Shown in pieces: positions 5,596-61,139 of a stretch of 64,000 nucleotides of DNA. Every line of letters begins with the position of its first letter. Within the stretch, counting starts at the first letter, position 1. The DNA is from an uncultured Campylobacterales bacterium (GTDB lineage Bacteria; Campylobacterota; Campylobacteria; Campylobacterales; QNZT01): positions 51,743 through 115,742 of the forward strand of contig CAZLLE010000083.1 in assembly GCA_964560425.1 (NCBI GenBank), given 5' to 3'. A model generated the notes under the pieces. It worked only from the letters and a program-made list of their open reading frames with translations, was not told the DNA's origin and searched no databases. The position numbers and the translations under genes were made by a program.

Positions 5596-6118
5596 TGATC
5601 TTTTAGCAGTTGCTACTATTGGAAAAGTTGTTGGGCTTAGTGGCGAATTAAAGCTACATAGTCATAGTGACTTTTCTGAGCAATTTGTGGAAGGTGCTAA
5701 GTTTACTCTAAATAATGGTAACCAGATTGAGATAGAGTCATATAATCCAAATAGATCACTCGTAAAGTTTTATCACTTTAATGTGCGAGAGGATGCTGCT
5801 AAATTAACAAATCAAAAACTTTTTACTACTGTTGATGAGAGTCGTAAAAACTGTGTTTTAGGTGAAAAAGAGTTTTTTTGGTTTGATATTGTTGGTTTGG
5901 ATATTATAGATGATGGCAAAAATCTTGGTAAGGTAAAAGAGGTTGAGAGAATTGCTAATAGTGATTATCTTCTAATCGAAACTGATAAGCAGTTACTAAA
6001 AGATGGATTGCCCAAAAGATTTTATATACCATACATAGATAGATATGTTATAAAAGTTATTTTAGGTAGTGGATTGATTAAAACTATTGATGCTTATGGA
6101 TTGCTTGAGAGTTCATGA
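5585..6118 (+). CDS. rimM: 16S rRNA processing protein RimM
   Basis: The N-terminal pattern is [13 protein letters not shown] with a PRC-barrel C-terminus. It overlaps the neighbouring genes by 11 nt and 4 nt within the trmD operon. Confidence 0.9.
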
Positions 6119-6810
6119 AATTCACATTTTTGACACTTTTTGATACTTTAATCAAAGAGTATTTTGAAGATTCTATACTATCTCGTGCTATCAAAAAAGA
6201 TCTTATAGAGATTGATTTTATAAATCCTAGAGATTATACTCTCAATAAACATAAAAAAGTTGATGATTATCAGGTTGGCGGTGGAGCAGGGCTTTTGTTG
6301 ATGGCTCAGCCTCTTGGTGATGCTATAAAATCTATTAAAGATAATGATCCTAACGCATATATTATCTTTCCAACTCCAGCAGGAAAACCATTTAAACAGA
6401 TTGATGCAAAAAGATTATCCAAAAAATCTCATATAGTATTTGTTAGTGGTCGATATGAGGGGATTGATGAGAGGGTAATTGAGAAGTATGCAGATGAGCT
6501 ATTTAGTATAGGTGATTTTATTCTTACAGGTGGTGAATTGGCTAGCTTGTGTATGTGTGATGCTATTAGTAGAAATGTATCGGGAGTGCTTGGAAATCAA
6601 GACTCTTTGAGTGTTGAAAGCTTTGAAGCAGAGCAGTTAGAAGCACCAGCTTTCACAAAACCAAATCAATTTGATGGCAAGGAAGTTATTAAAGAGTATT
6701 TAAAGGGAAATCATAGTAAAATCCACACTTTAAAAAATAGATTAGCCATCTATAAAACACAATTTTTTAGACCAGACTTATATCAAAAAACAAAAATTAA
6801 TAGTAAATAG
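6115..6810 (+). CDS. trmD: tRNA (guanine37-N1)-methyltransferase TrmD
   Basis: Motifs seen are [11 protein letters not shown] and LTGGELAS. Operon context supports the call. Confidence 0.95.
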
Positions 6811-6821
6811 AGGAAAAAACA

Positions 6822-7181
6822 ATGAGAAATAAGTACATTGAAGCTTTTGAAGCAAAGCAAATAGAGGGAAAAAATATTCCTGATTTTAGAGCGGGTGATA
6901 CGCTTAGAGTTGATGTTATAATTAAAGAGGGTGATAAAACAAGAGTTCAAAAATTTGAAGGTGTTTGTATTGCTAGAAGAGGTCAAGGTACAGGTGAGAC
7001 TTTTATGATTAGAAAAATAGGTGCTAACAATGTTGGTGTTGAGAGAATTTTCCCAATTTTGAGTGATAGCATTGAGAATATTACAGTTCTTAGAAGAGGT
7101 AGAGTAAGAAGAGCTAAATTGTTCTATCTTAGAGAGCTTAAAGGTAAAGCAGCAAGAATTAAAGAACTTAAAAGAAAGTAA
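6822..7181 (+). CDS. rplS: 50S ribosomal protein L19
   Basis: The FRAGDTLRV...[12 protein letters not shown]...RRAKLFYLR pattern is typical of L19. Confidence 0.97.
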
Positions 7182-46975: not shown

Positions 46976-47707
46976 ATGAAAATAGTATTATTACTTTTAA
47001 TTGGAGTGATATTGAGTGCGGGTAATATAAAAATAGCTGTGGCAGCTAATGTTAGCTATGCAATAGAGGATTTAAAGGCGGAGTTTAATACGCTTTATCC
47101 TGATATAAAAGTTCAAGTTACACTTGGAAGTAGTGGAAAATTGACAGCCCAAATCAAAAATGGAGCTCCGTATCAACTATTTATGTCTGCAAATATGAGA
47201 TATCCAAAATCTCTATATACTGATAAAATAGCCATAACAAAACCAAAAGTTTATGCACAAGGTGGACTTGCTTTTTTGAGTAGTAAAAAAAGAGATTTTT
47301 CAAAAGGGATTAATCTCTTAAAAGATAAAAAAATATCTAAAATAGCTATTGCTAATCCAAAAACAGCACCCTATGGAAAAGCAACATTAGAAGCTTTGAC
47401 AAATGCCAAAATTTATAATGATATAAAATCAAAAATTGTCTATGGTGAATCAATCTCACAAACTCTAACATTTACATTAAGGGCTACAGACATTGGAATT
47501 GTTGCAAAATCTCTACTTTTTTCACCTAGAATGGCTAAATTTAAAAAAGGTATAAATTGGAGTGAATTAGATTCTTCTCTTTATACTCCTATTAGTCAAG
47601 GGATTGTTATGCTAAAAGATAATAGAGATGTGGAGCTATTTTATAATTTTATATTGAGTCAAAAGGCAAAAAAAATCTTGAAAAATTTTGGGTATATAGT
47701 AGAGTGA
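46976..47707 (+). CDS. modA: molybdate ABC transporter substrate-binding protein
   Basis: It has a signal peptide. AANVSYA...TLGSSGKLTAQI...NPKTAPYGKA is the ModA pattern. modB and modC lie downstream. Confidence 0.9.
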   Translation: MKIVLLLLIGVILSAGNIKIAVAANVSYAIEDLKAEFNTLYPDIKVQVTLGSSGKLTAQIKNGAPYQLFMSANMRYPKSLYTDKIAITKPKVYAQGGLAFLSSKKRDFSKGINLLKDKKISKIAIANPKTAPYGKATLEALTNAKIYNDIKSKIVYGESISQTLTFTLRATDIGIVAKSLLFSPRMAKFKKGINWSELDSSLYTPISQGIVMLKDNRDVELFYNFILSQKAKKILKNFGYIVE

Positions 47708-48099
47708 ATAGTTTAATTGCTTTGGTTGTAAAAATTGATAATGTTGATAATCTTAATATTGTTGATTTTAAATTTTTGGATCAGACTCTTAGCATGATGA
47801 GCTTGGATTTGAGTGATAATATCAGAGTTGGAAGTAGGGTTGAATTAATGGCAAATCCCTCTCATGTTGCAATAGCCAAAAATTTTAGGGGAGTATTAAG
47901 CTACTCAAATCAATTAGAGGCAAAGATAAAATCATTAGAGAATGGTAAACTTTTGAGTAGTATTAAACTCTCTATTGGAAGCTCTATATTAGAATCTATT
48001 ATTACACTTCGTTCATCTAAAAAGATGAATTTAAAAGTAGGTGATGAAGTTACAGCTCTTATTAAAGCTAGTGAACTCTCTATTTTGAGGGTTTTGTAG
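47704..48099 (+). CDS. molybdopterin-binding Mop/TOBE domain protein
   Basis: The 131-aa product has two TOBE-like halves (SRVELMANPSHVAIAK and GDEVTALIKASELSI). It lies between modA and modB. Confidence 0.7.
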   Translation: MNSLIALVVKIDNVDNLNIVDFKFLDQTLSMMSLDLSDNIRVGSRVELMANPSHVAIAKNFRGVLSYSNQLEAKIKSLENGKLLSSIKLSIGSSILESIITLRSSKKMNLKVGDEVTALIKASELSILRVL

Positions 48100-48791
48100 T
48101 GTTTGAACTATTACAAAATCTTGAATTTACTCCGTTTGTATTATCTTTTAAATTGGCTTCTATTACTACTTTGATTTTGTTTATTGTCTCTCTCCCTTTG
48201 GCTTGGTATCTATCTCAAACATCTTCAAAAATCAAACCATTTTTGGAGGCTATTACAGCTTTGCCTATTGTACTTCCTCCATCAGTTTTGGGATTTTATA
48301 TTTTAGTTGCTCTTTCTCAAAATTCACCAATTGGTACTTTCTTTGATAAATATTTTGATATCAAACTTGTATTTAATTTTACAGGGCTTGTAGTTGCTAG
48401 TTGTTTTTACTCTCTTCCTTTTATGCTTCAGCCTCTTCAGAGTGGTTTTGAAAATATAAATAAAAATATGCTTGAAGCCTCTTATCTAGCGGGTAAAAGT
48501 AAATTTGTAACTATCTTTAGAGTCGCTCTTCCAAATATAAAACCAGCTCTTTTAACTGCTATCATTATAACTTTTGCACATACTGTTGGTGAGTTTGGAG
48601 TTGTTTTGATGGTTGGTGGAAGTATTCCTGAAGAGACAAAAGTGGCTTCAGTTGCAATATATGAGATGGTAGAGATTATGGATTATAGTTCCGCTCATAT
48701 CTATAGTGCTATTATGGTTATCATGAGTTTTCTTGTATTACTTATTGTATATATTTTTAATGCCAAAGAGAATAAAAAGTTTAGGGTATAA
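48099..48791 (+). CDS. modB: molybdate ABC transporter permease
   Basis: It has five TM helices and the EAA loop EASYLAGKSKFVTIFRVALP. Confidence 0.9.
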   Translation: MFELLQNLEFTPFVLSFKLASITTLILFIVSLPLAWYLSQTSSKIKPFLEAITALPIVLPPSVLGFYILVALSQNSPIGTFFDKYFDIKLVFNFTGLVVASCFYSLPFMLQPLQSGFENINKNMLEASYLAGKSKFVTIFRVALPNIKPALLTAIIITFAHTVGEFGVVLMVGGSIPEETKVASVAIYEMVEIMDYSSAHIYSAIMVIMSFLVLLIVYIFNAKENKKFRV

Positions 48792-48794
48792 GAG

Positions 48795-49673
48795 ATGTTG
48801 AAAATAGAGTTAACTAAGAGGCTTCATGGTAGTAGTGGAGAGATGAATTTGGATATTAATCTTGAAATAGATGAGAATGATTTTGTTGCTCTAAGTGGAA
48901 AAAGTGGAAGTGGAAAAACAACATTTTTAAGAATACTTGCAGGGTTGGAAGATGCAAGAGGAGAGATAAAAATAGGTGATAAAATTTGGCTAGATTCCAA
49001 GATTAATACTCCGCCTCAAAAAAGAGAGATAGGTTTTGTCTTTCAAGATTATGCACTCTTTTCAAACATGAGTGTAGAAGAGAATCTACTTTTTGTAAAT
49101 AGAGATAAAACTCTTGCTTCTCGCTTGTTGGATATTACAGAGCTTAGTGAACTAAAAAAGCGTTTCCCAAATACCCTTAGTGGAGGACAAAAACAGCGTG
49201 TTAGTTTGTGTAGGGCTTTGATGAATAGACCAAAATTGTTACTTATGGATGAGCCATTATCTGCTCTTGATCCTATGATGCGAACAAAACTTCAAAATGA
49301 GATTTTGACACTTCACTCTGAATTTGGAACAACTACTATTATGGTCAGTCATGATAGTAGTGAAATTTATAGATTGAGTAATAGAGTATTGATCTTAAAT
49401 CAAGGAAAAATTATTGATGATGGTCTTGCAAAAGATGTTTTACTAAAGACAACAGGCTCTCAAAAATTCTCTTTTGAGGGTGAATTGCTAGATATTATCA
49501 AAGTAGATGTGATCTATATAGCAATTATATCTATAGCTCAACAGTTAGTTGAAGTTGTAGTTACTTCCAAAGAGGCTCAAAATTTGACTATTGGTGAAGT
49601 GGTGAATGTTAGTACAAAAGCTTTTAGTCCGACCATCTCTTCAAAGGGGAAAAGTTTTCCCCCCTTAAAGTGA
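48795..49673 (+). CDS. modC: molybdate ABC transporter ATP-binding protein
   Basis: Motifs are Walker A GKSGSGKTT, signature LSGGQKQRV and Walker B LLLMDEP. A short TOBE-like tail is present. Confidence 0.88.
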   Translation: MLKIELTKRLHGSSGEMNLDINLEIDENDFVALSGKSGSGKTTFLRILAGLEDARGEIKIGDKIWLDSKINTPPQKREIGFVFQDYALFSNMSVEENLLFVNRDKTLASRLLDITELSELKKRFPNTLSGGQKQRVSLCRALMNRPKLLLMDEPLSALDPMMRTKLQNEILTLHSEFGTTTIMVSHDSSEIYRLSNRVLILNQGKIIDDGLAKDVLLKTTGSQKFSFEGELLDIIKVDVIYIAIISIAQQLVEVVVTSKEAQNLTIGEVVNVSTKAFSPTISSKGKSFPPLK

Positions 49674-50678
49674 TTTTTTGATTCTATAGTTGATCTGTTT
49701 TATTAGAGATTCCCAATTTACAGCTTTTTCTCTATTCATGATAGATGCATGATTGCTTGTGTTCCAGTTTAGATATTTTGCTGGATTTAGCCATTTGTTG
49801 AGGTATCTAATCTCATAGTGTAGATGAGCTCCTGTGCTTCTGCCTGTGCTACCTACATAGCCTATTATATTACCTTTATATACATACTCACCCTTTTTGA
49901 CCTTATATTGACTTAAATGTCCATACGCAGTTTCAAATCCATAAGCATGATTTATAAGTATAAATTTCCCATAGCCACCTTTATTACCTACAAAAGAGAT
50001 AACTCCATCAGCTGTAGCACGAATTGGTGTACCTTTTTTGGCAACTAAATCTATACCTGCATGAAAACTTTTTTTATGAGTTATTGGATGTGTACGATAA
50101 CCAAATTTACTAGATACTCTTTTGTATGGGATAGGTCTATCATTTGGAATATTTTTCTCAAGAGTAGTTGTCAAAGCTTTTGATAACTTTTTTTGAATAA
50201 ATTTTTTCCTATTTTGACTATTTGCTTTTATGTCAGCTGCTTTTATTCTATCACCAAGAGCTGCATCCATATCTGGTTCAAGTCCAATCTTTTTCTCTAT
50301 CTCTTGTAGATGTTCATTCATTGATTCTAGTTTTTGACTATCATCAGTTATACTTTGTTGTAGTTGTAGATTTTTACTAATTAGTGTATGTTTTACATCT
50401 TCTAGCTCTTTTTTTTCTAATAAGAGAGTTTTATGCTCTTTTTTAAGTTGTTGATTTTGATCAATAAGTTGTTGTTGTGAATCTTTTAATTCTTGTGTAT
50501 ATAATGCATAATCATCAACCCTAACAGATAGAGTTTTTAGTAATATTGCACCTATAATAATAATTAGGATTACTCCTAGAAGTACCCATTTTGCAACTAC
50601 TTTAATGAATTGATTCAGTGTATATTGTCTGATCCCATTTATATCACTTATGGTAATCATGAACTGGTTTTTCATCAT
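49665..50678 (-). CDS. M23 (LytM) family metallopeptidase with coiled-coil region
   Basis: It has an N-terminal TM, a Q/L/E-rich coiled coil, and catalytic motifs HAGIDL and GAHLHYEI. Its 3' end overlaps modC by 9 nt. Confidence 0.88.
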   Translation of the reverse strand: MMKNQFMITISDINGIRQYTLNQFIKVVAKWVLLGVILIIIIGAILLKTLSVRVDDYALYTQELKDSQQQLIDQNQQLKKEHKTLLLEKKELEDVKHTLISKNLQLQQSITDDSQKLESMNEHLQEIEKKIGLEPDMDAALGDRIKAADIKANSQNRKKFIQKKLSKALTTTLEKNIPNDRPIPYKRVSSKFGYRTHPITHKKSFHAGIDLVAKKGTPIRATADGVISFVGNKGGYGKFILINHAYGFETAYGHLSQYKVKKGEYVYKGNIIGYVGSTGRSTGAHLHYEIRYLNKWLNPAKYLNWNTSNHASIMNREKAVNWESLIKQINYRIKKSL

Positions 50679-50688
50679 TTCTTTCCTT

Positions 50689-51687
50689 CTATACTTTGCA
50701 TAAACTATTTTCAGTTAATGCAAAGAGTACCTCTTCTAGGGTATCTCTATATTTCGAGTATTCTACTTGTAGTGTTCCTGCATTAAGATGACCTCCTCCT
50801 CCTAGTTTTGATAGGATTTGTGCAATATTAGCATTAGAGTTTTTGTTGATAATAGATTTACCTACTGCAAATACAATATTTTTTTTATCTTTAGCTGGAA
50901 ATATATGAATTGATGTATTTGCATTTGGAAAAAGTGTATAGATTAAAAAACGATTTCCGGGATAAATTATCTCTTCATCTTTGAGATTGAGTATTATAGT
51001 TTTATCTTCTAGGGTTGCACATCTTTTTAGTTGATCTATAAATTGTTGTTGATATTTATTATAAAGTTCAACTCTCTCTTTTACATCAGGAAGTTGCAAA
51101 ATTTCACTGATTGTATATTTGTTACAATAATCGACTAAATCCATCATAAGAGAGTAGTTAGATATTCTAAAGTTTTTGAACTTTCCAAGATTAGTGCGTG
51201 GATCCATTATAAAACTAAGTAGATTCCAACCTGTTGGATTTTTGATTTCATCTATAGTATATTTTGCTTGATTAGCATAATTTAGTGCATCTATCATCTC
51301 TTTGAAATATAAAGGAAAATCAGCACCAACTCTTTGATAATAGCTATATATTACCTCTGCTGTTGATGAAGCATCAGTAAATAGTACATGATTTGCATTA
51401 ATAATAATATTTCCAATTGTATGTGTGTAGTGATGATCAAATGCTTTATTTACACCTTGTGCATATGGTAAATTTGCTGTGATATCATCTAAACTAATTT
51501 CGATTTTACCATCTTGCATATCCTTTGGATGTACAAATTTAATATTATCGATGATCTCAAGATATTTGAGTAGAGATGCACATATAATACCATCCATATT
51601 ACTTCTAGTTAATAATCTATATTTTTTTGTGTTGTTGTTGGCTTGCATATTTTGGATCCTCAATTTTTGATATAAGTACCAAACCAT
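50689..51687 (-). CDS. DHH/DHHA1-family phosphoesterase
   Basis: Motifs are NMDGI, AFDHHYTH and GGGGHLNAGT. The track start lies inside a 20-bp inverted repeat. ATG 51648 (MQANNN...) has a GAGGA RBS and is the likelier start. Confidence 0.7.
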   Translation of the reverse strand: MVWYLYQKLRIQNMQANNNTKKYRLLTRSNMDGIICASLLKYLEIIDNIKFVHPKDMQDGKIEISLDDITANLPYAQGVNKAFDHHYTHTIGNIIINANHVLFTDASSTAEVIYSYYQRVGADFPLYFKEMIDALNYANQAKYTIDEIKNPTGWNLLSFIMDPRTNLGKFKNFRISNYSLMMDLVDYCNKYTISEILQLPDVKERVELYNKYQQQFIDQLKRCATLEDKTIILNLKDEEIIYPGNRFLIYTLFPNANTSIHIFPAKDKKNIVFAVGKSIINKNSNANIAQILSKLGGGGHLNAGTLQVEYSKYRDTLEEVLFALTENSLCKV

Positions 51688-51720: not shown

Positions 51721-51759
51721 ATTACAAATCAGATCGACAAAAAGGGAAAAAAGTGAAGC

Positions 51760-51787
51760 TTTTTCATGAGTGTTGAATCATGAAAAA
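51760..51787 (-). terminator. AT-rich stem-loop downstream of the LysM gene
   Basis: TTTTTCATGA-8 nt-TCATGAAAAA forms a perfect 10-bp stem. On the minus strand a T-rich stretch follows after about 9 nt. This is a weak terminator candidate. Confidence 0.35.
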
Positions 51788-51795
51788 ACTTGCTA

Positions 51796-52650
51796 TTATT
51801 GTGGAATTCTAAGTTTTTGTCCGGGATAAATTAATCTTTTATTTTTTATAAGCTCGGGGTTGGCTTTGATAATTTTTTTATATGCAGATACTGTACCATA
51901 AGCTTTTAGAGCAATTTTTGAGAGTGTATCACCACTTTTGACAGTAATAAATTTCATCTCTTTCTCTCTTGTTTTTATCTCTTTTGCAATTGATTGAGTA
52001 TATTTTGTCTTTTTCTGTTTTTTGAAATCCTCTTTAAAGTCTTTCTCTATCTCATCATTAATTAACATAGACATTCTTGAGAGTGCATCTAGTTCAAGAG
52101 TATTCTCTTTTTTTGTTACAACAACTTTGTTAAATCTCTGCATATCTTTCTCTGATAGATTATCACCTGCCTCTTTACTCTGCTCCTCTTTTGTCATCTC
52201 TAAATTAGTATCATTTTGTACATTATCTAATCTATCTACTTCTGCTTCAACAAGTGATGATATAAAATCTTTATTATCTGTTTGTGCATCTTTTGTTTTG
52301 CTAGAAGCACTATTCATTTGTGCCATAACTGCTTGAACAATCATACTAATATCTTCAGCTTTCAAGTTTCCTGTTTTTATTTGAGGAGCTTGTTGTGTAG
52401 TAGGAGTTGAGATATTTTGTGTTTGATTTGATCTTATATTATCCTCTTTAATCATATATTTATATCCAAACATAATTAGATAAGCTGTGATAATAAATAG
52501 AACCAAAATAATTAAAATTTGAATTATACTTCCAAAAGGAGTGTTACTCTCTTCTTTATTTTCTTGCGTATCTTTAACATTCAAATTACTATTTGCACCA
52601 TATTGGTTAAAGTCATTTTCCAAATGCTCAGATTCTTCTCTTTTAAACAT
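51796..52650 (-). CDS. LysM-domain membrane protein
   Basis: It has one TM (IIQILIILVLFIITAYLIMFGY), a low-complexity linker, and a C-terminal LysM (ITVKSGDTLSKIALKAYG...IYPGQKLRIP). Confidence 0.85.
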   Translation of the reverse strand: MFKREESEHLENDFNQYGANSNLNVKDTQENKEESNTPFGSIIQILIILVLFIITAYLIMFGYKYMIKEDNIRSNQTQNISTPTTQQAPQIKTGNLKAEDISMIVQAVMAQMNSASSKTKDAQTDNKDFISSLVEAEVDRLDNVQNDTNLEMTKEEQSKEAGDNLSEKDMQRFNKVVVTKKENTLELDALSRMSMLINDEIEKDFKEDFKKQKKTKYTQSIAKEIKTREKEMKFITVKSGDTLSKIALKAYGTVSAYKKIIKANPELIKNKRLIYPGQKLRIPQ

Positions 52651-52661
52651 CTTCTTTTCCT

Positions 52662-53333
52662 TTACTTATTAATCTCTTTTTGTACTACTGTTGTCAGTCC
52701 TAGAATTTTCCATCCTTGAAAACCATCTCTATAATAGAAAATTTTATCTGTTGGATATCCATATTTTAATAGTCCATTTATTAATCTTCGTGATTGATCG
52801 CACCATAGGCCATTATCAAAAATAGTTAATTCTTTTGCTTTTTCAAAATTCCATTTACCATCTTTATCTATGTTCATTCCTAGAAGTGTAAAGATTTTTG
52901 CGATTTTACTTTTTTTTGCTCTTTCCATCACGGGATAAGGAATATTAACTGCTGATGGTATAGTTTCAATCTCATGCCATCTTTTTAATCTAGCATCCAC
53001 TATAACTCCTTGTGCTTTTTCCACCTTGTTTTTGATAAAGCTCATCAACTCTACTTCTCCAACTGTTTTAATATCAGGGTGAACTTTCATAGGATGTATA
53101 CAAAATGGTGGACACTCTCTTGCTACTTTTACATAATCATCAGTTAAGATATTCTCTGTATCTTGTATTCTTTGTACACGAACTTCATTTCCTAAATGGT
53201 ATAGGTTGACATAAGGTATATCTTTTGTAATTTTTACATGTATCTGCTCTTTTTGCATATCGACACTATTTTGAGAAAATAGAGAGCTACTAAATAAAAC
53301 TCCACTTGCTATTGCTACATTTATAACTTTCAT
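52662..53333 (-). CDS. secreted rhodanese-like domain protein (paralog A)
   Basis: It has a signal peptide. Motifs are CPPFC, DARLKRWHEIETIPSAVNIPY and a putative active-site loop FDNGLWCDQSRR. It is clearly paralogous to 55047-55694. Confidence 0.65.
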   Translation of the reverse strand: MKVINVAIASGVLFSSSLFSQNSVDMQKEQIHVKITKDIPYVNLYHLGNEVRVQRIQDTENILTDDYVKVARECPPFCIHPMKVHPDIKTVGEVELMSFIKNKVEKAQGVIVDARLKRWHEIETIPSAVNIPYPVMERAKKSKIAKIFTLLGMNIDKDGKWNFEKAKELTIFDNGLWCDQSRRLINGLLKYGYPTDKIFYYRDGFQGWKILGLTTVVQKEINK

Positions 53334-53345
53334 TATTTTTCCTTG

Positions 53346-55037
53346 TTAATAATCTATGCTAAGTTCACTCATGTGAACTGCTTTATTCATCTCTTTTAAG
53401 AGGATAGGGTTTAGTTTTATTATATTCGCTAAATCACTACTATTTGGACTCTTTTTTATATATAGTGGTTTGAGCTTTTTCCATAGGGTTTGAACCTTTA
53501 TAAGCTGTTGTTTAATTGATTTATTACTTACAGGTATAACTTTTATATTTTCATCACCTTTTAAGAGTGCCAAAAGTGAATTTTCAAATAGAGCAATAGT
53601 CTCATCTAACTTTTTTTGGTTACTGTTTTGGTTTAAATTTGCTACTGTTAGTAGTTTCTCTTTTGCCATCTTTTGTGTTAACATTCTTTGTCTTCCTGCA
53701 ACATCAATAACTTGTGTTCGTACGACATCCATGTATCCATCAAAATTCTTATTTTTCTTATATAGTTGCACAAGGGTATTTGAAATTTTTAGTAGATTCT
53801 CATTGTGTGAAGCAATAAATATAATATCTTTCGGATCTGTTTTTTGAGTATTACTAATATTTTGAATATGTTTATAAAAAGGTTGCCACTCCTCTTGAAT
53901 AGTTTTTAGTTGTGTAAGAATATTTTTATCTGTTGTTGGTATTAATTGTAGATCTTTATCGCCATTTATAAAGCCATTTAGTGTTTTGTTGTATAAATTA
54001 GAGGCTTTTTTTAGCTCTTTTTTACTATTTTTTACCCCAATGTTTGATGCAATTAGCAGTGAAAGTTTTGACATTTTTTGTGTCAACATTCTCTGCTTTC
54101 CTGCTAGATTAATAACATGATTTTTTTCACTTTTTAACTCCATAAAATTACCAACAATAGCTGATAAGTTTTTCATGAGTTTCTCTTTTCTTATTGAGTT
54201 TTCATATAGTGAAACAATTTGATTCATCTGTGTACGAAGTGAGTCTAGTTTAATAATACTCTCTTTTAATTTTCCTCTATTTTTTTGAAGTTTCTTATAA
54301 TCAAGAGATGGTTTAATATCTTCCCAATCTTTTTGAGCAATTTTTAACTCTTTTTTAATTTTGGTTAGTTTAGTTCCCTTTAAATTTAGTGAACTATCTC
54401 CATTTTGTAACCCTTTTAATATTTTGTCAAATAGAGATATAGTTGTTTGTAACTCTTTTTTATTCTCTTTTGTATTGATATTATTAGTGATTAGGAGAAT
54501 CTCTTTTGCTATTTTCTGTGTAAGCATTCTCTGTTTTCCAGCAAGGTTGATATCATTTGTCAAACTTGATTTTAAGTTAGAACTATCTCCCCTTTTGATA
54601 TACATCTCTACAACTTTATTTATCTCTTTTAAGAGTTGTAAATTTATTTCTGCTATAGAGTGATAACTTTTTTTAGATGATCTGTTATGTAAAATATTTT
54701 CAATATCTTTATGAAATTTTTTCCAAATTTTTTCTACGATTTTTAGTCGTTTTTGAATTTTTGAATTTTTAATAGCTACAAGATTTAACTCTTTATCTCC
54801 ATTGATTAGACCATTAAGTGTCTGCTCAAAAAGTTTAATACTATGATTTAGGTTTTTTATATTTTTCTTTTTATCAATACTAGATTTAATTAAAAATATC
54901 TCTTTTGTTATTTTTTGTGATAACATCCTCTGTTTACCTGCCAAATTTATAGTTGTGGCTAACTCTTTATTTGATAAGGCAAATGATAGAGATGGTAGTA
55001 GTAGTAATAAAATAAAAATTTTCTTTATATATATCAA
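53346..55037 (-). CDS. secreted protein made of four tandem PilJ/NarX-type (NIT-like) sensor modules, no output domain
   Basis: TTG start and a signal peptide ending LSFALS. The motif AG(K/R)QRML(S/T)QK occurs at residues 33, 166, 312 and 447. I see no TM segment or catalytic/HAMP/MCP domain after the signal peptide. Confidence 0.7.
   Translation of the reverse strand: MIYIKKIFILLLLLPSLSFALSNKELATTINLAGKQRMLSQKITKEIFLIKSSIDKKKNIKNLNHSIKLFEQTLNGLINGDKELNLVAIKNSKIQKRLKIVEKIWKKFHKDIENILHNRSSKKSYHSIAEINLQLLKEINKVVEMYIKRGDSSNLKSSLTNDINLAGKQRMLTQKIAKEILLITNNINTKENKKELQTTISLFDKILKGLQNGDSSLNLKGTKLTKIKKELKIAQKDWEDIKPSLDYKKLQKNRGKLKESIIKLDSLRTQMNQIVSLYENSIRKEKLMKNLSAIVGNFMELKSEKNHVINLAGKQRMLTQKMSKLSLLIASNIGVKNSKKELKKASNLYNKTLNGFINGDKDLQLIPTTDKNILTQLKTIQEEWQPFYKHIQNISNTQKTDPKDIIFIASHNENLLKISNTLVQLYKKNKNFDGYMDVVRTQVIDVAGRQRMLTQKMAKEKLLTVANLNQNSNQKKLDETIALFENSLLALLKGDENIKVIPVSNKSIKQQLIKVQTLWKKLKPLYIKKSPNSSDLANIIKLNPILLKEMNKAVHMSELSIDY
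53346..55037 (-). repeat. four tandem intragenic repeats of about 400-440 nt
   Basis: The conserved core codons for AGKQRML sit at 54921-54941, 54522-54542, 54084-54104 and 53679-53699 (computed from the ORF frame). The flanking LFE/LFD...LNGL(I/Q)NGD...W pattern recurs in each unit. Confidence 0.75.
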
Positions 55038-55046
55038 TTAATTCTC

Positions 55047-55694
55047 CTACTGTTTTGGTACAATTGTACTTAATCCAAGAAGTTGCCAAAACTGCATACC
55101 ACCTCTGTAATATGAGATTTTATCTTTTGGATAACCATGTTTGATTAAGTTTCTCATTCCACTAACAGCTTGTTGACACCAAGGTCCATTATCAAATAGA
55201 AGTAGTTGCATAGCATCTGAAAAGTTCCAACCTTTTTTACTTTTAGTTGCTCCAAATAGTTTAAATATCTGATCTACATAAGGGTTGTCTTCATCTGCTG
55301 AGAGAATAGAAAAAGGTATATTTACAGCCCCCGGTATTGTACCGTTTTGGTGCCATTTTGGCATTCTTGCATCAACTAAAGCACCTCTGTTATTTGATAG
55401 CTTTTTTTGAATAAAATCAAGTACATCTAGTTCAGAGATTGCAACAATACCCTCTATTGGCTCAAGTGCTTGAACACAAAATGGTGGACATGGTCTAGAT
55501 GTTTTTGCATAACTATTATTTAGTTTTTTTTGTGTATCTTGAACTCTTTGAATTTTCATTATTTTGCCCTCAAATTCAACCTCCACAAATGGTAAATCTT
55601 TTTTGATATTAACCTCTAAAGCCGATAAATTAGCCGTAAATGAGAGTGCTACCATTATTGTTGTTACTATTTTTGGTAAATATACTCTTTTCAT
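55047..55694 (-). CDS. secreted rhodanese-like domain protein (paralog B)
   Basis: It has a signal peptide. Motifs are CPPFC, DARMPKWHQNGTIPGAVNIPF, FDNGPWCQQAVS and GYPKDKISYYRGGMQFW. It is colinear with 52662-53333. Confidence 0.65.
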   Translation of the reverse strand: MKRVYLPKIVTTIMVALSFTANLSALEVNIKKDLPFVEVEFEGKIMKIQRVQDTQKKLNNSYAKTSRPCPPFCVQALEPIEGIVAISELDVLDFIQKKLSNNRGALVDARMPKWHQNGTIPGAVNIPFSILSADEDNPYVDQIFKLFGATKSKKGWNFSDAMQLLLFDNGPWCQQAVSGMRNLIKHGYPKDKISYYRGGMQFWQLLGLSTIVPKQ

Positions 55695-55825
55695 GTTGCT
55701 CCTTGTATAACTATTTTAAATTCTCTTAAGCAACTTCTATTCCTATACTCAGGTTATTAATTTATTCTTCTTTTTTCCGATCTTAAGTACATGAAGTAAA
55801 TATTTATATATTAGAAGGATGGGAG

Positions 55826-56614
55826 ATGGCATTTTTCTCTAGAATGGGCAAAAAAAAAGAGAACAAAAATTTTTATAGTGTTTCTACAATTATCACAGAA
55901 GGGACAAGTAGTTTTGGAAATATTGTGGGTAATGATACAATCCATGTAGATGGAAATGTAGAGGGTAATATCAAGGTAAATAATATTGTAATTATCGGTA
56001 AAAGTGGTGTAGTAAATGGAAAAATACAAGCACAGCAGGTGATGATCAGTGGTGAAACATCAGGGCAAATTATATGTAACTCTCTTGAAGTTATGGATTC
56101 AGCAGTTGTTAGTAGTCATGTAAAAGCAAATAAGGCGTTGGTTAAGGGTGTTATTAAGGCTACAATCCATTGTGATGGTCTTTTTGTAGAGAAAAATGGT
56201 GTTATTAGAGGAAAAGTACAAGCCAAAGATTTAGTGGTAAGTGGAATTGTAAATGGTGATGTTGCTTGTAATGTACTTTCAATCAAAAAGAGTGGTTTTG
56301 TTCGTGGTAAAATGTTTGTCAATAATATGATAAATGAAGGTGGTAAAGTAGAGGGAGCGATTGGACTTTATAATGATTTATTAACTCCAGAGCAGATGGC
56401 TAAACTTAAAAATGGTAAATCTGTTAAACTACTTGAAATGTCAGATTATTATGTAGATGTACCAACAGAGGTTGAAACTGAATCAAAAATTAAAGATATT
56501 ATAGAGCAAGTTGTCTCATATGAGGGTGAAAAAAATCCAGAACTTGGATTTATTGCTCCAAAAGAGTCAATAGATGAAGATTTTGTTGATGTTGATTTTG
56601 AGGCAATACCTTAA
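55826..56614 (+). CDS. ccmA: bactofilin-family cytoskeletal protein (CcmA-like) with acidic C-terminal extension
   Basis: It shows a repetitive beta-helix pattern (IHVDGNVEGNIKVNNIVIIGKSGVVNGKIQAQQVMISGETSGQI...). The RBS is AGGATGGGAG. Confidence 0.85.
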   Translation: MAFFSRMGKKKENKNFYSVSTIITEGTSSFGNIVGNDTIHVDGNVEGNIKVNNIVIIGKSGVVNGKIQAQQVMISGETSGQIICNSLEVMDSAVVSSHVKANKALVKGVIKATIHCDGLFVEKNGVIRGKVQAKDLVVSGIVNGDVACNVLSIKKSGFVRGKMFVNNMINEGGKVEGAIGLYNDLLTPEQMAKLKNGKSVKLLEMSDYYVDVPTEVETESKIKDIIEQVVSYEGEKNPELGFIAPKESIDEDFVDVDFEAIP

Positions 56615-56661: not shown

Positions 56662-57465
56662 TTGAAAATTCCATATATTAGTATATTTTTGTTATTAATA
56701 ATTGTAGGGGTCTCATTTTTTGGCTCATATTTTTATAATATCTCTCCTTTTGAATTAAATAAAGAGGCAATTTTATTGCCTCCCTCTTTTGAGAATCTAA
56801 TGGGTACAGATCGTCTTGGTCGTGATGTTTTTGCACGGATAATGGAGGGTGGAAAAGTCTCTTTGATTATTGGTGTAGGAAGTGCTTTGATTGCTAGTTT
56901 TACAGGGCTTATGATCGGTGTTTCTGCTGGTTTTTTGGGTAGAGGTGTTGACAAGCTTGTTATTATTTTGATTGATCTATTTTTGACATTTCCTACTTTT
57001 TTCTTGTTATTAGCTTTGATTAGTTATATGAATGCATCTATTTTGATTTTAGTAATTGTAATCTCTATTACTGGATGGATGGGTATGGCTAGAATGATTC
57101 GTAGTGAGAGTTTTGCTATTAATTCAAAACCATTTATTAAGATACTCAAAATTTCAGGCGTTAGCAAAGTTAAAATTATTCTCAAATATTTTACTCCTCT
57201 TCTTGCTCCTATATTTTTTATTAGTTTTACTTTTGGTGTTGGTGGTGCAATTTTGGCAGAGAGTGGACTAAGTTTTTTGGGGATTGGTATTATGCCTCCA
57301 CAAATTAGTTGGGGAAGTGTTTTGAGTGAGGGTAAAGATGTTGTTGATATTGCTTGGTGGCTCAGTTTTTTTCCTGGTTTGATGATCTTTTTGATAATTT
57401 ACTCTTTGGCAAATATATCTGATTTTTTACAAAGGTATACAAATCAAAAAGATAAGGTCGTATAG
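56662..57465 (+). CDS. ABC transporter permease, DppC/OppC/NikC-like (no cognate ATPase or binding protein adjacent)
   Basis: TTG start and six TM helices. Motifs are LMGTDRLGRDVFARI and the EAA-like loop ...FIKILKISGVSKVKIILKY.... Confidence 0.8.
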   Translation: MKIPYISIFLLLIIVGVSFFGSYFYNISPFELNKEAILLPPSFENLMGTDRLGRDVFARIMEGGKVSLIIGVGSALIASFTGLMIGVSAGFLGRGVDKLVIILIDLFLTFPTFFLLLALISYMNASILILVIVISITGWMGMARMIRSESFAINSKPFIKILKISGVSKVKIILKYFTPLLAPIFFISFTFGVGGAILAESGLSFLGIGIMPPQISWGSVLSEGKDVVDIAWWLSFFPGLMIFLIIYSLANISDFLQRYTNQKDKVV

Positions 57466-59831: not shown

Positions 59832-61139
59832 TTGGTAAAATATATGAAAAAAAATCGAAGTATTGTCAAAACCTTTTTTATTAGCATGTCAACAGTTATT
59901 TTCTCATTGGTTCTAATTGTTGTTATTCTTTCTGTATATCAGAGTAGTTTTGATATTGATCCTACTTTTAGAGAGTTCAGTAACGGCATTCTAGACTCTC
60001 TTTTTGCAATTAGAACTAGTCAATTGCTTTTTATTGCCTTTTTTGCAGTGGTTATCTCTATTATCATTGCATATTTTATATCTTCAAATATAGAGAAAAA
60101 TTTTGATGTTTTTCATCTTTACTTCCATAAAGCTGCACATAAATTAGAAAAAATAGATACAAATAAATTACAGTTTGATGAATTTATTAGTCTTGCAAAT
60201 TCTGTTAATACTATGATAGATAGTATTAATGAAGCACATAAAGAGTTAGAGTGGAATCAAAAATATCTTCAGGCAATATTAGAGGCACAGACAAACATGG
60301 TATTGGTTTTATCAAGTGCTGAAAATGATATTATAGAGAGTGTAAATCAAGCGTTTTTAAACTATTTTGAAGTAGAAAGTATTGAAGAGTTCTATTATGA
60401 GTATAACTCTTTGACTGATGTACTAAAATATGAAGATTTGATGCTTAAAGATATATCAATTAATGATAAAAAATGGTTTGAATATATTTTAGAGAATCCA
60501 TCAATTACGCATAAAATTGTGATTGAGAGGGAGTCTTTGGATGATACTTTTATTGTTACAGCTAGTTTGGTGGATATAGAAAATGTTTATCGTGTTGTAA
60601 TTGCTCTTCATAAAGTAACAGAGTTAGAAGAGCAGAGAAAGATGTTTGAAAAAGAGGCATCTACTGATACTTTGACAAGAATTGCAAATAGATTAAAATT
60701 CAATGCCGTTTTAGAACAGCAGGTAGAGATTTCAAAAAGATATGGTGATGATCTTTCGATAATACTTTTTGATATTGATAACTTTAAAATGATTAATGAT
60801 ACTTATGGACATCAAGTTGGGGATAATGTTCTTGTAGAACTCTCTGCTGTTATTAGTGAATCTGTTAGAAAAAGTGATACTTTTGCGAGATGGGGAGGAG
60901 AGGAATTTGTAATTATTTTGTCTCAAACATCTCTTGAAACAGCTAAGATTTTAGCTGAAAAACTAAGAGAAAAAGTTGCTGGATACTCTTTTAGTGATAA
61001 TCTTGATGTTACTTGTAGTTTTGGTGTTGCTCAATATCAAAATATGGAGCCTATTTCTGATTTTCTCAAGCATGTAGATGATGCACTCTATCAAGCAAAG
61101 GATGCTGGTAAAAATATTGTTGTGAGTGATATATATTAA
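59832..61139 (+). CDS. membrane-bound diguanylate cyclase (2 TM, linker, PAS-like, GGDEF with I-site)
   Basis: Motifs are DTLTRIANR, FDIDNFKMINDTYGH and RKSD-x5-GGEEF. The likely true start is ATG 59844. Confidence 0.9.
   Translation: MVKYMKKNRSIVKTFFISMSTVIFSLVLIVVILSVYQSSFDIDPTFREFSNGILDSLFAIRTSQLLFIAFFAVVISIIIAYFISSNIEKNFDVFHLYFHKAAHKLEKIDTNKLQFDEFISLANSVNTMIDSINEAHKELEWNQKYLQAILEAQTNMVLVLSSAENDIIESVNQAFLNYFEVESIEEFYYEYNSLTDVLKYEDLMLKDISINDKKWFEYILENPSITHKIVIERESLDDTFIVTASLVDIENVYRVVIALHKVTELEEQRKMFEKEASTDTLTRIANRLKFNAVLEQQVEISKRYGDDLSIILFDIDNFKMINDTYGHQVGDNVLVELSAVISESVRKSDTFARWGGEEFVIILSQTSLETAKILAEKLREKVAGYSFSDNLDVTCSFGVAQYQNMEPISDFLKHVDDALYQAKDAGKNIVVSDIY

Follow-up and report, generated by a model that had tools for sequence, protein, structure and literature searches.

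A predicted four-gene operon of an uncultured Campylobacterales bacterium combines an output-less, N-box-type PilJ array with two rhodanese-like paralogs and a LysM membrane protein

What does a sensor module do in a protein that carries no transmitter? This question is raised by a minus-strand locus of an uncultured Campylobacterales bacterium (contig CAZLLE010000083.1, assembly GCA_964560425.1), which we analysed within a stretch of 64,000 nucleotides, the window, whose first letter is position 1. The central protein of the locus, PilJx4, is made of four PilJ modules and nothing else. Its gene stands between rhoA and rhoB, which encode two rhodanese-like paralogs, and rhoB is followed by lysM-TM, which encodes a LysM membrane protein. 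We found that genes of these families recur together in related genomes in several orders and that rho and PilJ parts are fused in two lineages. We tentatively favour a reading, possible though short of an even chance, in which the proteins form an anchored periplasmic complex whose N-box PilJ array binds nitrate or another oxyanion and acts on or through its SoxL-family partners.

A first-pass annotation of the window had described three co-directional genes here. The ORF (open reading frame) listing recovered all three at exactly those positions with gaps of 9 nt (rhoA/pilJx4) and 12 nt (pilJx4/rhoB), and added a fourth co-directional ORF after a further 11 nt (rhoB/lysM-TM), so that the supposed triad is a tetrad running from 55694 to 51796. 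An AGGA-type ribosome-binding site was read 5' of each start. In a hairpin scan, no minus-strand terminator-like site was found between the four genes; the only one stands directly after lysM-TM, and we therefore placed the end of the operon there. The promoter scan returned 25 sites against 24 expected from shuffled AT-rich sequence, and no promoter was assigned upstream of rhoA. The G+C content is about 29-30% throughout, without a compositional break. We regard rhoA-pilJx4-rhoB-lysM-TM as one predicted four-gene operon with the following features.

55695..55825, minus strand: region between rhoA and the divergent bactofilin gene, the presumed site of the operon promoter.
55047..55694, minus strand: rhoA, 215 aa, with CPPFC (C69, C73) followed by a C-terminal rhodanese-like domain (ORF, PF00581, AlphaFold2 and Foldseek).
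55173..55193, minus strand: equivalent of the active-site loop in RhoA, D168-N-G-P-W-C173-Q (model, BH2092 alignment and family column counts).
53346..55037, minus strand: pilJx4, 563 aa, TTG start, four PilJ four-helix-bundle modules (Pfam, hydropathy, AlphaFold2, Foldseek).
54582..54974, minus strand: PilJ module 1, aa 22-152, A-type, N-box INLAGKQRMLSQ at 54915-54950.
54138..54581, minus strand: PilJ module 2, aa 153-300, B-type, N-box INLAGKQRMLTQ at 54516-54551.
53742..54137, minus strand: PilJ module 3, aa 301-432, A-type, N-box INLAGKQRMLTQ at 54078-54113.
53349..53741, minus strand: PilJ module 4, aa 433-563, B-type, N-box IDVAGRQRMLTQ at 53673-53708.
52662..53333, minus strand: rhoB, 223 aa, RhoA paralog with CPPFC (C74, C78) (ORF, Pfam, pairwise comparison).
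52797-52817, minus strand: RhoB loop, D173-N-G-L-W-C178-D (alignment).
51796..52650, minus strand: lysM-TM, 284-aa single-pass membrane protein (ORF, PF01476, hydropathy).
51756..51791, minus strand: terminator-like hairpin of 14 pairs followed by a T run, marking the end of the four-gene operon.

The four PilJ stretches of PilJx4 were recognised by Pfam (PF13675) with an E value of 6.5e-75 and 249 bits against a cut-off of 26.6, and no other Pfam domain was found in the protein. Outside the leader no membrane helix was detected, the top 19-residue Kyte-Doolittle mean being 0.83. The AlphaFold2 model consists of four four-helix bundles only, with a predicted local distance difference test score (pLDDT) of 86.3 and a predicted TM-score (pTM) of 0.53. 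A hidden membrane helix or output domain is ruled out by hydropathy, Pfam, NCBIfam and the AlphaFold2 model together, and the initial description of an output-less protein of four PilJ/NarX-type modules is thereby borne out. Consequently, PilJx4 does not belong with the transmembrane sensors (chemoreceptors, NarX/NarQ-type kinases, GGDEF proteins), as it has no membrane helix leading to a transmitter. The N-termini of RhoA, PilJx4 and RhoB each run from a basic through a hydrophobic to a small-residue segment. All three had been assigned signal peptides; the leader-like N-termini stand, and their sequence fits secretion of the three proteins.

PilJx4 carries the signature of a nitrate-binding subtype of this module. 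In McpN, both chains contribute R61 to hydrogen-bond a single nitrate at the dimer axis, this arginine is reported to have a key role in recognition, and the N-box [IVL][ND]xAGxQRML[ST]Q was defined from McpN as the marker of nitrate-binding PilJ domains (PMC6381276). All four PilJx4 modules match the N-box exactly, and R37, R170, R316 and R451, the equivalents of McpN R61, are invariant across 24 homologs. Among Protein Data Bank (PDB) entries, the family profile matched the periplasmic region of PilJ (8wdf/7zjr; best, E 5e-16) and the ligand-binding domain of McpN (6gcv). With Foldseek, one PilJx4 module was superposed on 6gcv with a target TM-score of 0.80-0.82, 30% identity and a root-mean-square deviation of 1.8-2.0 Å. 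By Pfam score, N-box and fold, PilJx4 is of the McpN-like subtype. Because the N-box arginines of two bundles clamp one nitrate in McpN and NarX, we predict that PilJx4 has up to two binding sites for nitrate or a similar small oxyanion. In similarity scores, modules 1 and 3 are closer to the first module of the two-module proteins described below, and modules 2 and 4 to the second; therefore, PilJx4 looks like two tandem copies of an A-B module pair. Each A-B pair would mimic the McpN dimer and form one binding site, a pseudo-dimer geometry that we infer from the McpN arrangement.

Genes of the rho, PilJ and LysM families stay together well beyond the window. We scanned species-representative genomes, which gave 483 PilJx4 relatives, and kept 79 loci. 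A rho gene lies within ~1 kb of 14 of the 27 four-module genes (the window included), and all of the 14 rho-linked PilJx4 loci on complete contigs also carry a LysM membrane-protein gene; every complete related cluster with rho and PilJ has one. The order rho-PilJx4-rho-LysM is found in the window, L001, L004, L012, L013, L020 and L023, and also in L003, where it is cut off by the contig end. Three loci (L017, L018, L036) have rho-PilJx4-LysM-rho, three others (L021, L022, L024) rho-LysM-PilJx4, and L006, a two-module locus, LysM-rho-PilJx2. The recurrence on which the first description depended was thus found, with the association kept in 13 further four-module loci and in one with two modules, across four gene orders. 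Moreover, the representative search revealed two fusion proteins from two lineages, P0243 and P0249, each with a leader, a rho part and two PilJ modules in one chain, and downstream of each fusion gene come another rho gene and a LysM gene (L080, L090). At the genomic level, rearranged co-occurrence and fusion together argue strongly that the three families act jointly, probably through physical contact. The extracytoplasmic complex that the operon would encode is typical of Campylobacterota that oxidise sulfur and respire nitrate, the kin of Sulfurovum and Nitratifractor. The exact window proteins and the cluster members bear only the database names 'rhodanese-related sulfurtransferase' and 'hypothetical protein'.

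In a neighbour-joining tree, the rho-linked PilJx4 clade is separate from a clade of stand-alone PilJx4 proteins. The genes of the latter have a conserved convergent neighbour, an AAA-type ATPase gene, which appears unrelated and was set aside as a candidate partner. Separately, in L021 (7038-8936) and L022 (7840-9810), the gene after rho-LysM-PilJx4 encodes a protein of ~630-656 aa, in which Pfam recognised, for L021, a calcineurin-like metallophosphoesterase domain and a purple acid phosphatase N-terminal domain.

The absence of a transmitter is not peculiar to this protein. A protein search with PilJx4 gave 1062 significant hits (>1000 protein clusters). The best 120 of these are 534-588 aa long with PilJ as their sole Pfam family, and where they are named at all they are called 'hypothetical' or given a generic PilJ-domain name. 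Output-less PilJ proteins are abundant, not exceptional, and it is therefore incorrect that this module always comes tethered to a transmitter, the same output-less architecture of ~557 aa being shared by the best 120 of the 1062 hits. The four-module proteins come from Campylobacterota (records labelled Sulfurovum, Nitratifractor and Campylobacterales). Two-module proteins of ~300 aa were found in Gammaproteobacteria (Sedimenticola, Thiomargarita, Shewanella, Psychromonas, Thiodiazotropha), Desulfobacterota, planctomycetes and others. Of 49 two-module genes, at least 18 are directly followed on the same strand by a gene with the signalling motif of methyl-accepting chemotaxis proteins (MCPs), and another 3 have an MCP gene directly upstream. 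The five downstream genes examined encode HAMP and MCPsignal domains, and Pfam recognised no sensor domain in their periplasmic part of ~190 residues. This arrangement looks like an undescribed pairing of co-receptor and chemoreceptor, and the soluble PilJ form in these other phyla is probably the partner of a chemoreceptor, as judged from gene order. A two-module PilJ gene followed by a chemoreceptor gene was seen in L044, L046, L049, L051, L060, L061, L063-L067, L070, L073-L075 and L079, the PilJ match sitting at ~6000-6900 in each of these loci.

The two flanking proteins had been called paralogous and rhodanese-like, and both descriptions hold. RhoA and RhoB are 41% identical over 191 residues (E 8e-61), and both pass the Pfam Rhodanese (PF00581) cut-off of 22.2 bits with 39.8 and 31.5 bits, RhoA with an E value of 6.6e-10. 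At the top of the Foldseek matches for the C-terminal half of the RhoA model stand three single-domain sulfurtransferases, namely TSTD1, RDL2 and BH2092, together with the rhodanese domain of a persulfide reductase (probability 1.00, target TM-score 0.55-0.72). In the model, a strand at 163-167, which ends at F167, and a helix at 175-185, which starts at Q175, place the active-site loop at D168-N-G-P-W-C173-Q. In the profile alignment to BH2092, whose loop is CWGPAC within YCWGPAC, D168 is matched with the first Cys and C173 with the second. The only loop Cys of RhoA is at position 6, and its equivalent, Cys178, is retained in RhoB. In both paralogs the loop is seven residues long, D-N-G-P/L-W-C-Q/D, and is not of the six-residue CxxGxR[ST] type. 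Canonical rhodanese activity of RhoA and RhoB is weakened by the Asp at the catalytic position. The suggestion that they are sulfurtransferase-like in the manner of Sud is doubtful on the same ground, and Sud itself was absent from the PDB sequence matches of RhoA at E up to 10 and from its top 50 Foldseek matches.

We next compared the loop across the rho family, aligning RhoA and RhoB with the best 150 of 889 representatives; 134 sequences were aligned at the loop. The two loop columns are Cys/Cys in 77 of the 134 and Asp/Asp in nine, among them the fusion P0249, and the lineages other than Cys/Cys have lost one or both cysteines. Among 3475 RhoA homologs found by protein search, all of the best 120 have Asp followed by Cys. 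In the related clusters RhoB is usually the Cys/Cys paralog with CPPFC and RhoA the degenerate one; the window has Asp/Cys in both. Each related cluster examined retains at least one loop Cys in at least one paralog. The CPPFC cysteines are replaced together in many RhoA orthologs (A/T...S/T/N/F, for example APPFS or TPPFN) while PPF is invariant. This joint loss disfavours an essential redox or metal site and is better fitted by a dispensable structural disulfide, which suggests that the two cysteines form such a bond at a conserved turn of Pro-Pro-Phe.

Among the relatives, the nearest whose gene context could be assigned point to a SoxL connection that the first-pass annotation had not considered, although its rhodanese identification stands at the level of fold. 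The genes of the two-cysteine rho members P0290, P0450 and P0467 directly follow soxX-soxA (L083, L086, L087), and P0290 matches the RhoA-family profile with an E value of 1.5e-45. On the longest contig, that of P0467, the rho gene lies between soxX-soxA and soxY-soxZ-soxB, in the position of soxL. SoxL of Allochromatium vinosum is a periplasmic rhodanese-like protein encoded after soxXAK (PMC3368242), and it has been proposed to regenerate SoxY (PMC3368242; PMC10892978). The link to SoxL (Alvin_2171) is drawn by gene position. RhoA and RhoB share homology with rho genes inside sox clusters, and both have CPPFC; they depart from the family majority, which combines CPPFC with a two-cysteine CNGxWC loop, in that their first loop Cys is Asp. 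We file them as divergent, putative SoxL-type family members that fail the catalytic-cysteine test.

Some rho members were seen in other company. L085 has a two-cysteine rho member paired with a LysM gene and no PilJ gene. In Beggiatoa-like contigs, the gene for a tandem two-cysteine rho protein of 449 aa overlaps the end of a gene for a 657-aa multi-pass membrane protein (L089 3035-6350, L092 3035-6350, L093 159-3474). This membrane protein contains a dCache domain but none of the known output domains, and the pair is translationally coupled (L089, L092). Genes of NrfD type and 4Fe-4S genes (PsrBC-like) adjoin the pair in L092 and L093, and an M23 peptidase gene does so in L089.

The fourth protein, LysM-TM, has one strongly hydrophobic segment at ~aa 38-62, read as a transmembrane helix, followed by a charged low-complexity region and a LysM domain at aa 235-283 (PF01476, E 1.3e-10, 41.5 bits against a cut-off of 20.9). 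LysM domains are peptidoglycan-binding. Basic residues precede the membrane helix in the homologs, which suggests that the LysM domain faces the periplasm.

Around the operon, a bactofilin gene lies upstream and divergent (55826-56614, plus strand), and past the terminator (49665-51687, minus strand) come genes for a conserved 332-aa protein without a family match and for an M23 peptidase with sub-threshold similarity to the shape and cell-wall endopeptidases Pgp3 and ShyA. The order bactofilin-operon-332-aa protein-M23 is common to the window, L001, L004, L012, L020 and L023, and in L013 it extends up to the 332-aa gene. The bactofilin and M23 flanks are missing from the Nitratifractor-type, L021-type and fusion clusters, all of which have rho, PilJ and LysM; therefore, we treat the flanking order as local synteny. 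These surroundings resemble cell-shape loci known from helical Campylobacterota. A molybdate-transporter-like set (46976-49673, plus strand; an SBP_bac_11 binding protein, a TOBE protein, a permease and an ATP-binding cassette (ABC) ATPase) lies ~2 kb past the downstream neighbours. Homologs of its binding protein and permease occur near PilJ loci in a Nitratifractor metagenome-assembled genome (MAG; L018 6687-8110) and a Pseudomonadales MAG (L070 9320-11970); the proximity may be fortuitous, or it may reflect a connection with nitrate respiration by molybdoenzymes. On the other side, a lone OppC/NikC-type ABC permease gene (56662-57465, plus strand), with no partner permease, ATPase or binding-protein gene adjacent, is followed by a TIGR02757/DUF2400 gene. 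A GGDEF diguanylate cyclase is encoded at 59832-61139 (plus strand), its N-terminal ~270 residues without a family match; GGDEF proteins of the same BLAST cluster occur in PilJ loci L023, L046, L052, L060, L073 and L075, which may reflect GGDEF abundance. The remaining ORFs scanned in the window (30326-63523) are housekeeping genes, and there are no chemotaxis genes among the window ORFs scanned in this range.

In the anchored-complex reading, the PilJx4 array would sense nitrate or another oxyanion in the periplasm. As there is no membrane-spanning transmitter, RhoA and RhoB are proposed as its direct partners, and LysM-TM would serve as the anchor that holds the assembly between inner membrane and peptidoglycan. 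The availability of nitrate as electron acceptor would then be coupled to SoxL-type sulfane-sulfur handling wholly within the periplasm. Here we infer the ligand, the formation of the complex, its output and its effect on sulfur oxidation. A bolder form, in which PilJx4 directly controls secreted SoxL-family effectors with no transmitter and no cytoplasmic step, acceptor availability thereby gating sulfane-sulfur handling in the periplasm, and in which output-less tandem PilJ proteins, partnered by rho proteins here and by chemoreceptors elsewhere, constitute an unrecognised class of soluble nitrate co-sensors, strikes us as rather unlikely. Several observations weigh against the anchored-complex reading. 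Many PilJx4 orthologs have Ser for Ala or Glu for Gln in some of their N-boxes. The pTM of PilJx4 is so low that the arrangement of its modules is not established, and the RhoA model is of moderate quality (pLDDT 66.5). At the canonical catalytic Cys position both paralogs have Asp (168 in RhoA, 173 in RhoB), and the loop cysteines that are retained differ among orthologous clusters, so sulfur transfer may not be the activity of the rho proteins. No sox or nap gene occurs among the 29 window ORFs scanned between 30326 and 63523, and rhoA and rhoB are accordingly not encoded in a sox gene cluster. Finally, the sister PilJx4 clade is encoded alone, with no rho or LysM genes; therefore, the PilJ array is not strictly dependent on these neighbours. 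The earlier proposal of a soluble array tied to two rhodanese-like paralogs is retained in the anchored-complex reading as far as the tie is concerned, while the role of the paralogs as sulfurtransferase partners is doubtful.

The solitary clade is also what speaks for another view, in which PilJx4 is a free periplasmic nitrate co-receptor that docks on an unlinked chemoreceptor or sensor kinase, the rho and LysM proteins being accessory or separate. The MCP-motif genes next to two-module PilJ genes, with the five scanned downstream ones having HAMP and MCPsignal domains and no annotated sensor domain, point in the same direction, and it is well established that solute-binding proteins can stimulate receptors (PMC8050422). 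However, no chemoreceptor or kinase gene adjoins any Campylobacterota cluster, and the view leaves the rho-PilJ fusions and the four conserved gene orders with rho and LysM unexplained; we consider it doubtful, if worth keeping in mind. We find it improbable that, in line with the first suggestion, RhoA and RhoB serve as active sulfurtransferases or carriers of sulfane sulfur in the periplasm, similar to Sud or SoxL and working through the remaining loop Cys, with PilJx4 as a scaffold or a binder of sulfur oxyanions. The conservation of Cys173 in all of the best 120 RhoA homologs and of Cys178 in RhoB, the loop Cys retained in every related cluster examined, and the family members at the SoxL position would all be expected of such carriers, but the catalytic position is Asp in both paralogs, some family representatives lack loop cysteines altogether (the nine Asp/Asp sequences included), the N-box fits the nitrate-binding signature and no known sulfur-anion site, and Sud was recovered by neither sequence nor fold searches. 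Lastly, the operon could be part of a cell-envelope or cell-shape machinery, with LysM, the M23 peptidase and bactofilin acting on peptidoglycan under regulation by PilJ and rho. The flanking order shared by the window and the loci named above, the M23 peptidase gene that follows the tandem rho gene in the Halobeggiatoa contig L089, and the affinity of LysM domains for peptidoglycan agree with this. Against it, bactofilin and M23 are missing from the three cluster types that keep rho, PilJ and LysM, and a terminator separates the operon from the downstream genes, which makes this the least probable of the explanations and a very improbable one.

NarXL-type regulation is common in Proteobacteria and not conserved in Campylobacterota, according to a 2019 review (PMC6682613). 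The abundant and conserved PilJx4 family, with its N-box and predicted secretion, is therefore a concrete and directly testable candidate route of nitrate perception in vent and sediment Campylobacterota. The genetic and fusion link between rho and PilJ suggests a direct periplasmic tie between acceptor sensing and sulfur oxidation, the two halves of energy metabolism. Soluble tandem PilJ proteins, often encoded beside sensor-less chemoreceptor genes, would add a new fold to the periplasmic co-receptors and would affect domain-based censuses in which a sensory protein counts as such when sensor and transmitter share one chain. The annotation had named no described system of this composition, and the literature likewise gave us no published description of an output-less or stand-alone tandem PilJ (PF13675) protein of this kind or of this gene combination, nor, in work on periplasmic rhodaneses of Sulfurovum and Sulfurimonas, of a rho-PilJ-LysM system. 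Two Sulfurovum transcriptome papers mention up-regulated rhodanese-like genes, which could not be tied to the rho family.

Compared with known systems, PilJx4 shares PF13675, the four-helix-bundle fold and the N-box arginine with the sensor domains of McpN (PA2788, Pseudomonas aeruginosa) and NarX/NarQ. McpN has one module per chain, forms a dimer and continues through a membrane helix to HAMP and MCP domains, whereas PilJx4 has four modules, is predicted to be secreted and has no transmitter. PilJ itself (PA0411; 7zjr, 8wdf) has tandem PilJ modules in one chain as PilJx4 does, but only two of them, within a membrane chemoreceptor, and it lacks the N-box and does not bind nitrate (PMC6381276). 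The RhoA/RhoB family resembles SoxL in being apparently secreted, with an N-terminal CPPFC before the rhodanese domain and two-cysteine kin at the SoxL position, while the window rho genes differ in lying outside a sox cluster, in having Asp for the first loop Cys and in being linked to PilJ and LysM. Sud of Wolinella succinogenes, also of the Campylobacterota, is a periplasmic polysulfide-sulfur transferase with a rhodanese fold and the canonical catalytic Cys, where RhoA and RhoB have Asp. The receptors stimulated by solute-binding proteins (Tar with the maltose-binding protein, LuxQ with LuxP) likewise have a soluble periplasmic ligand binder separate from the transmitter; in contrast to these binders, PilJx4 has the four-helix bundle of a sensor domain, and no receptor gene is adjacent to it in the Campylobacterota clusters. 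The components of the operon come from known families, and their architecture and combination are an undescribed variant.

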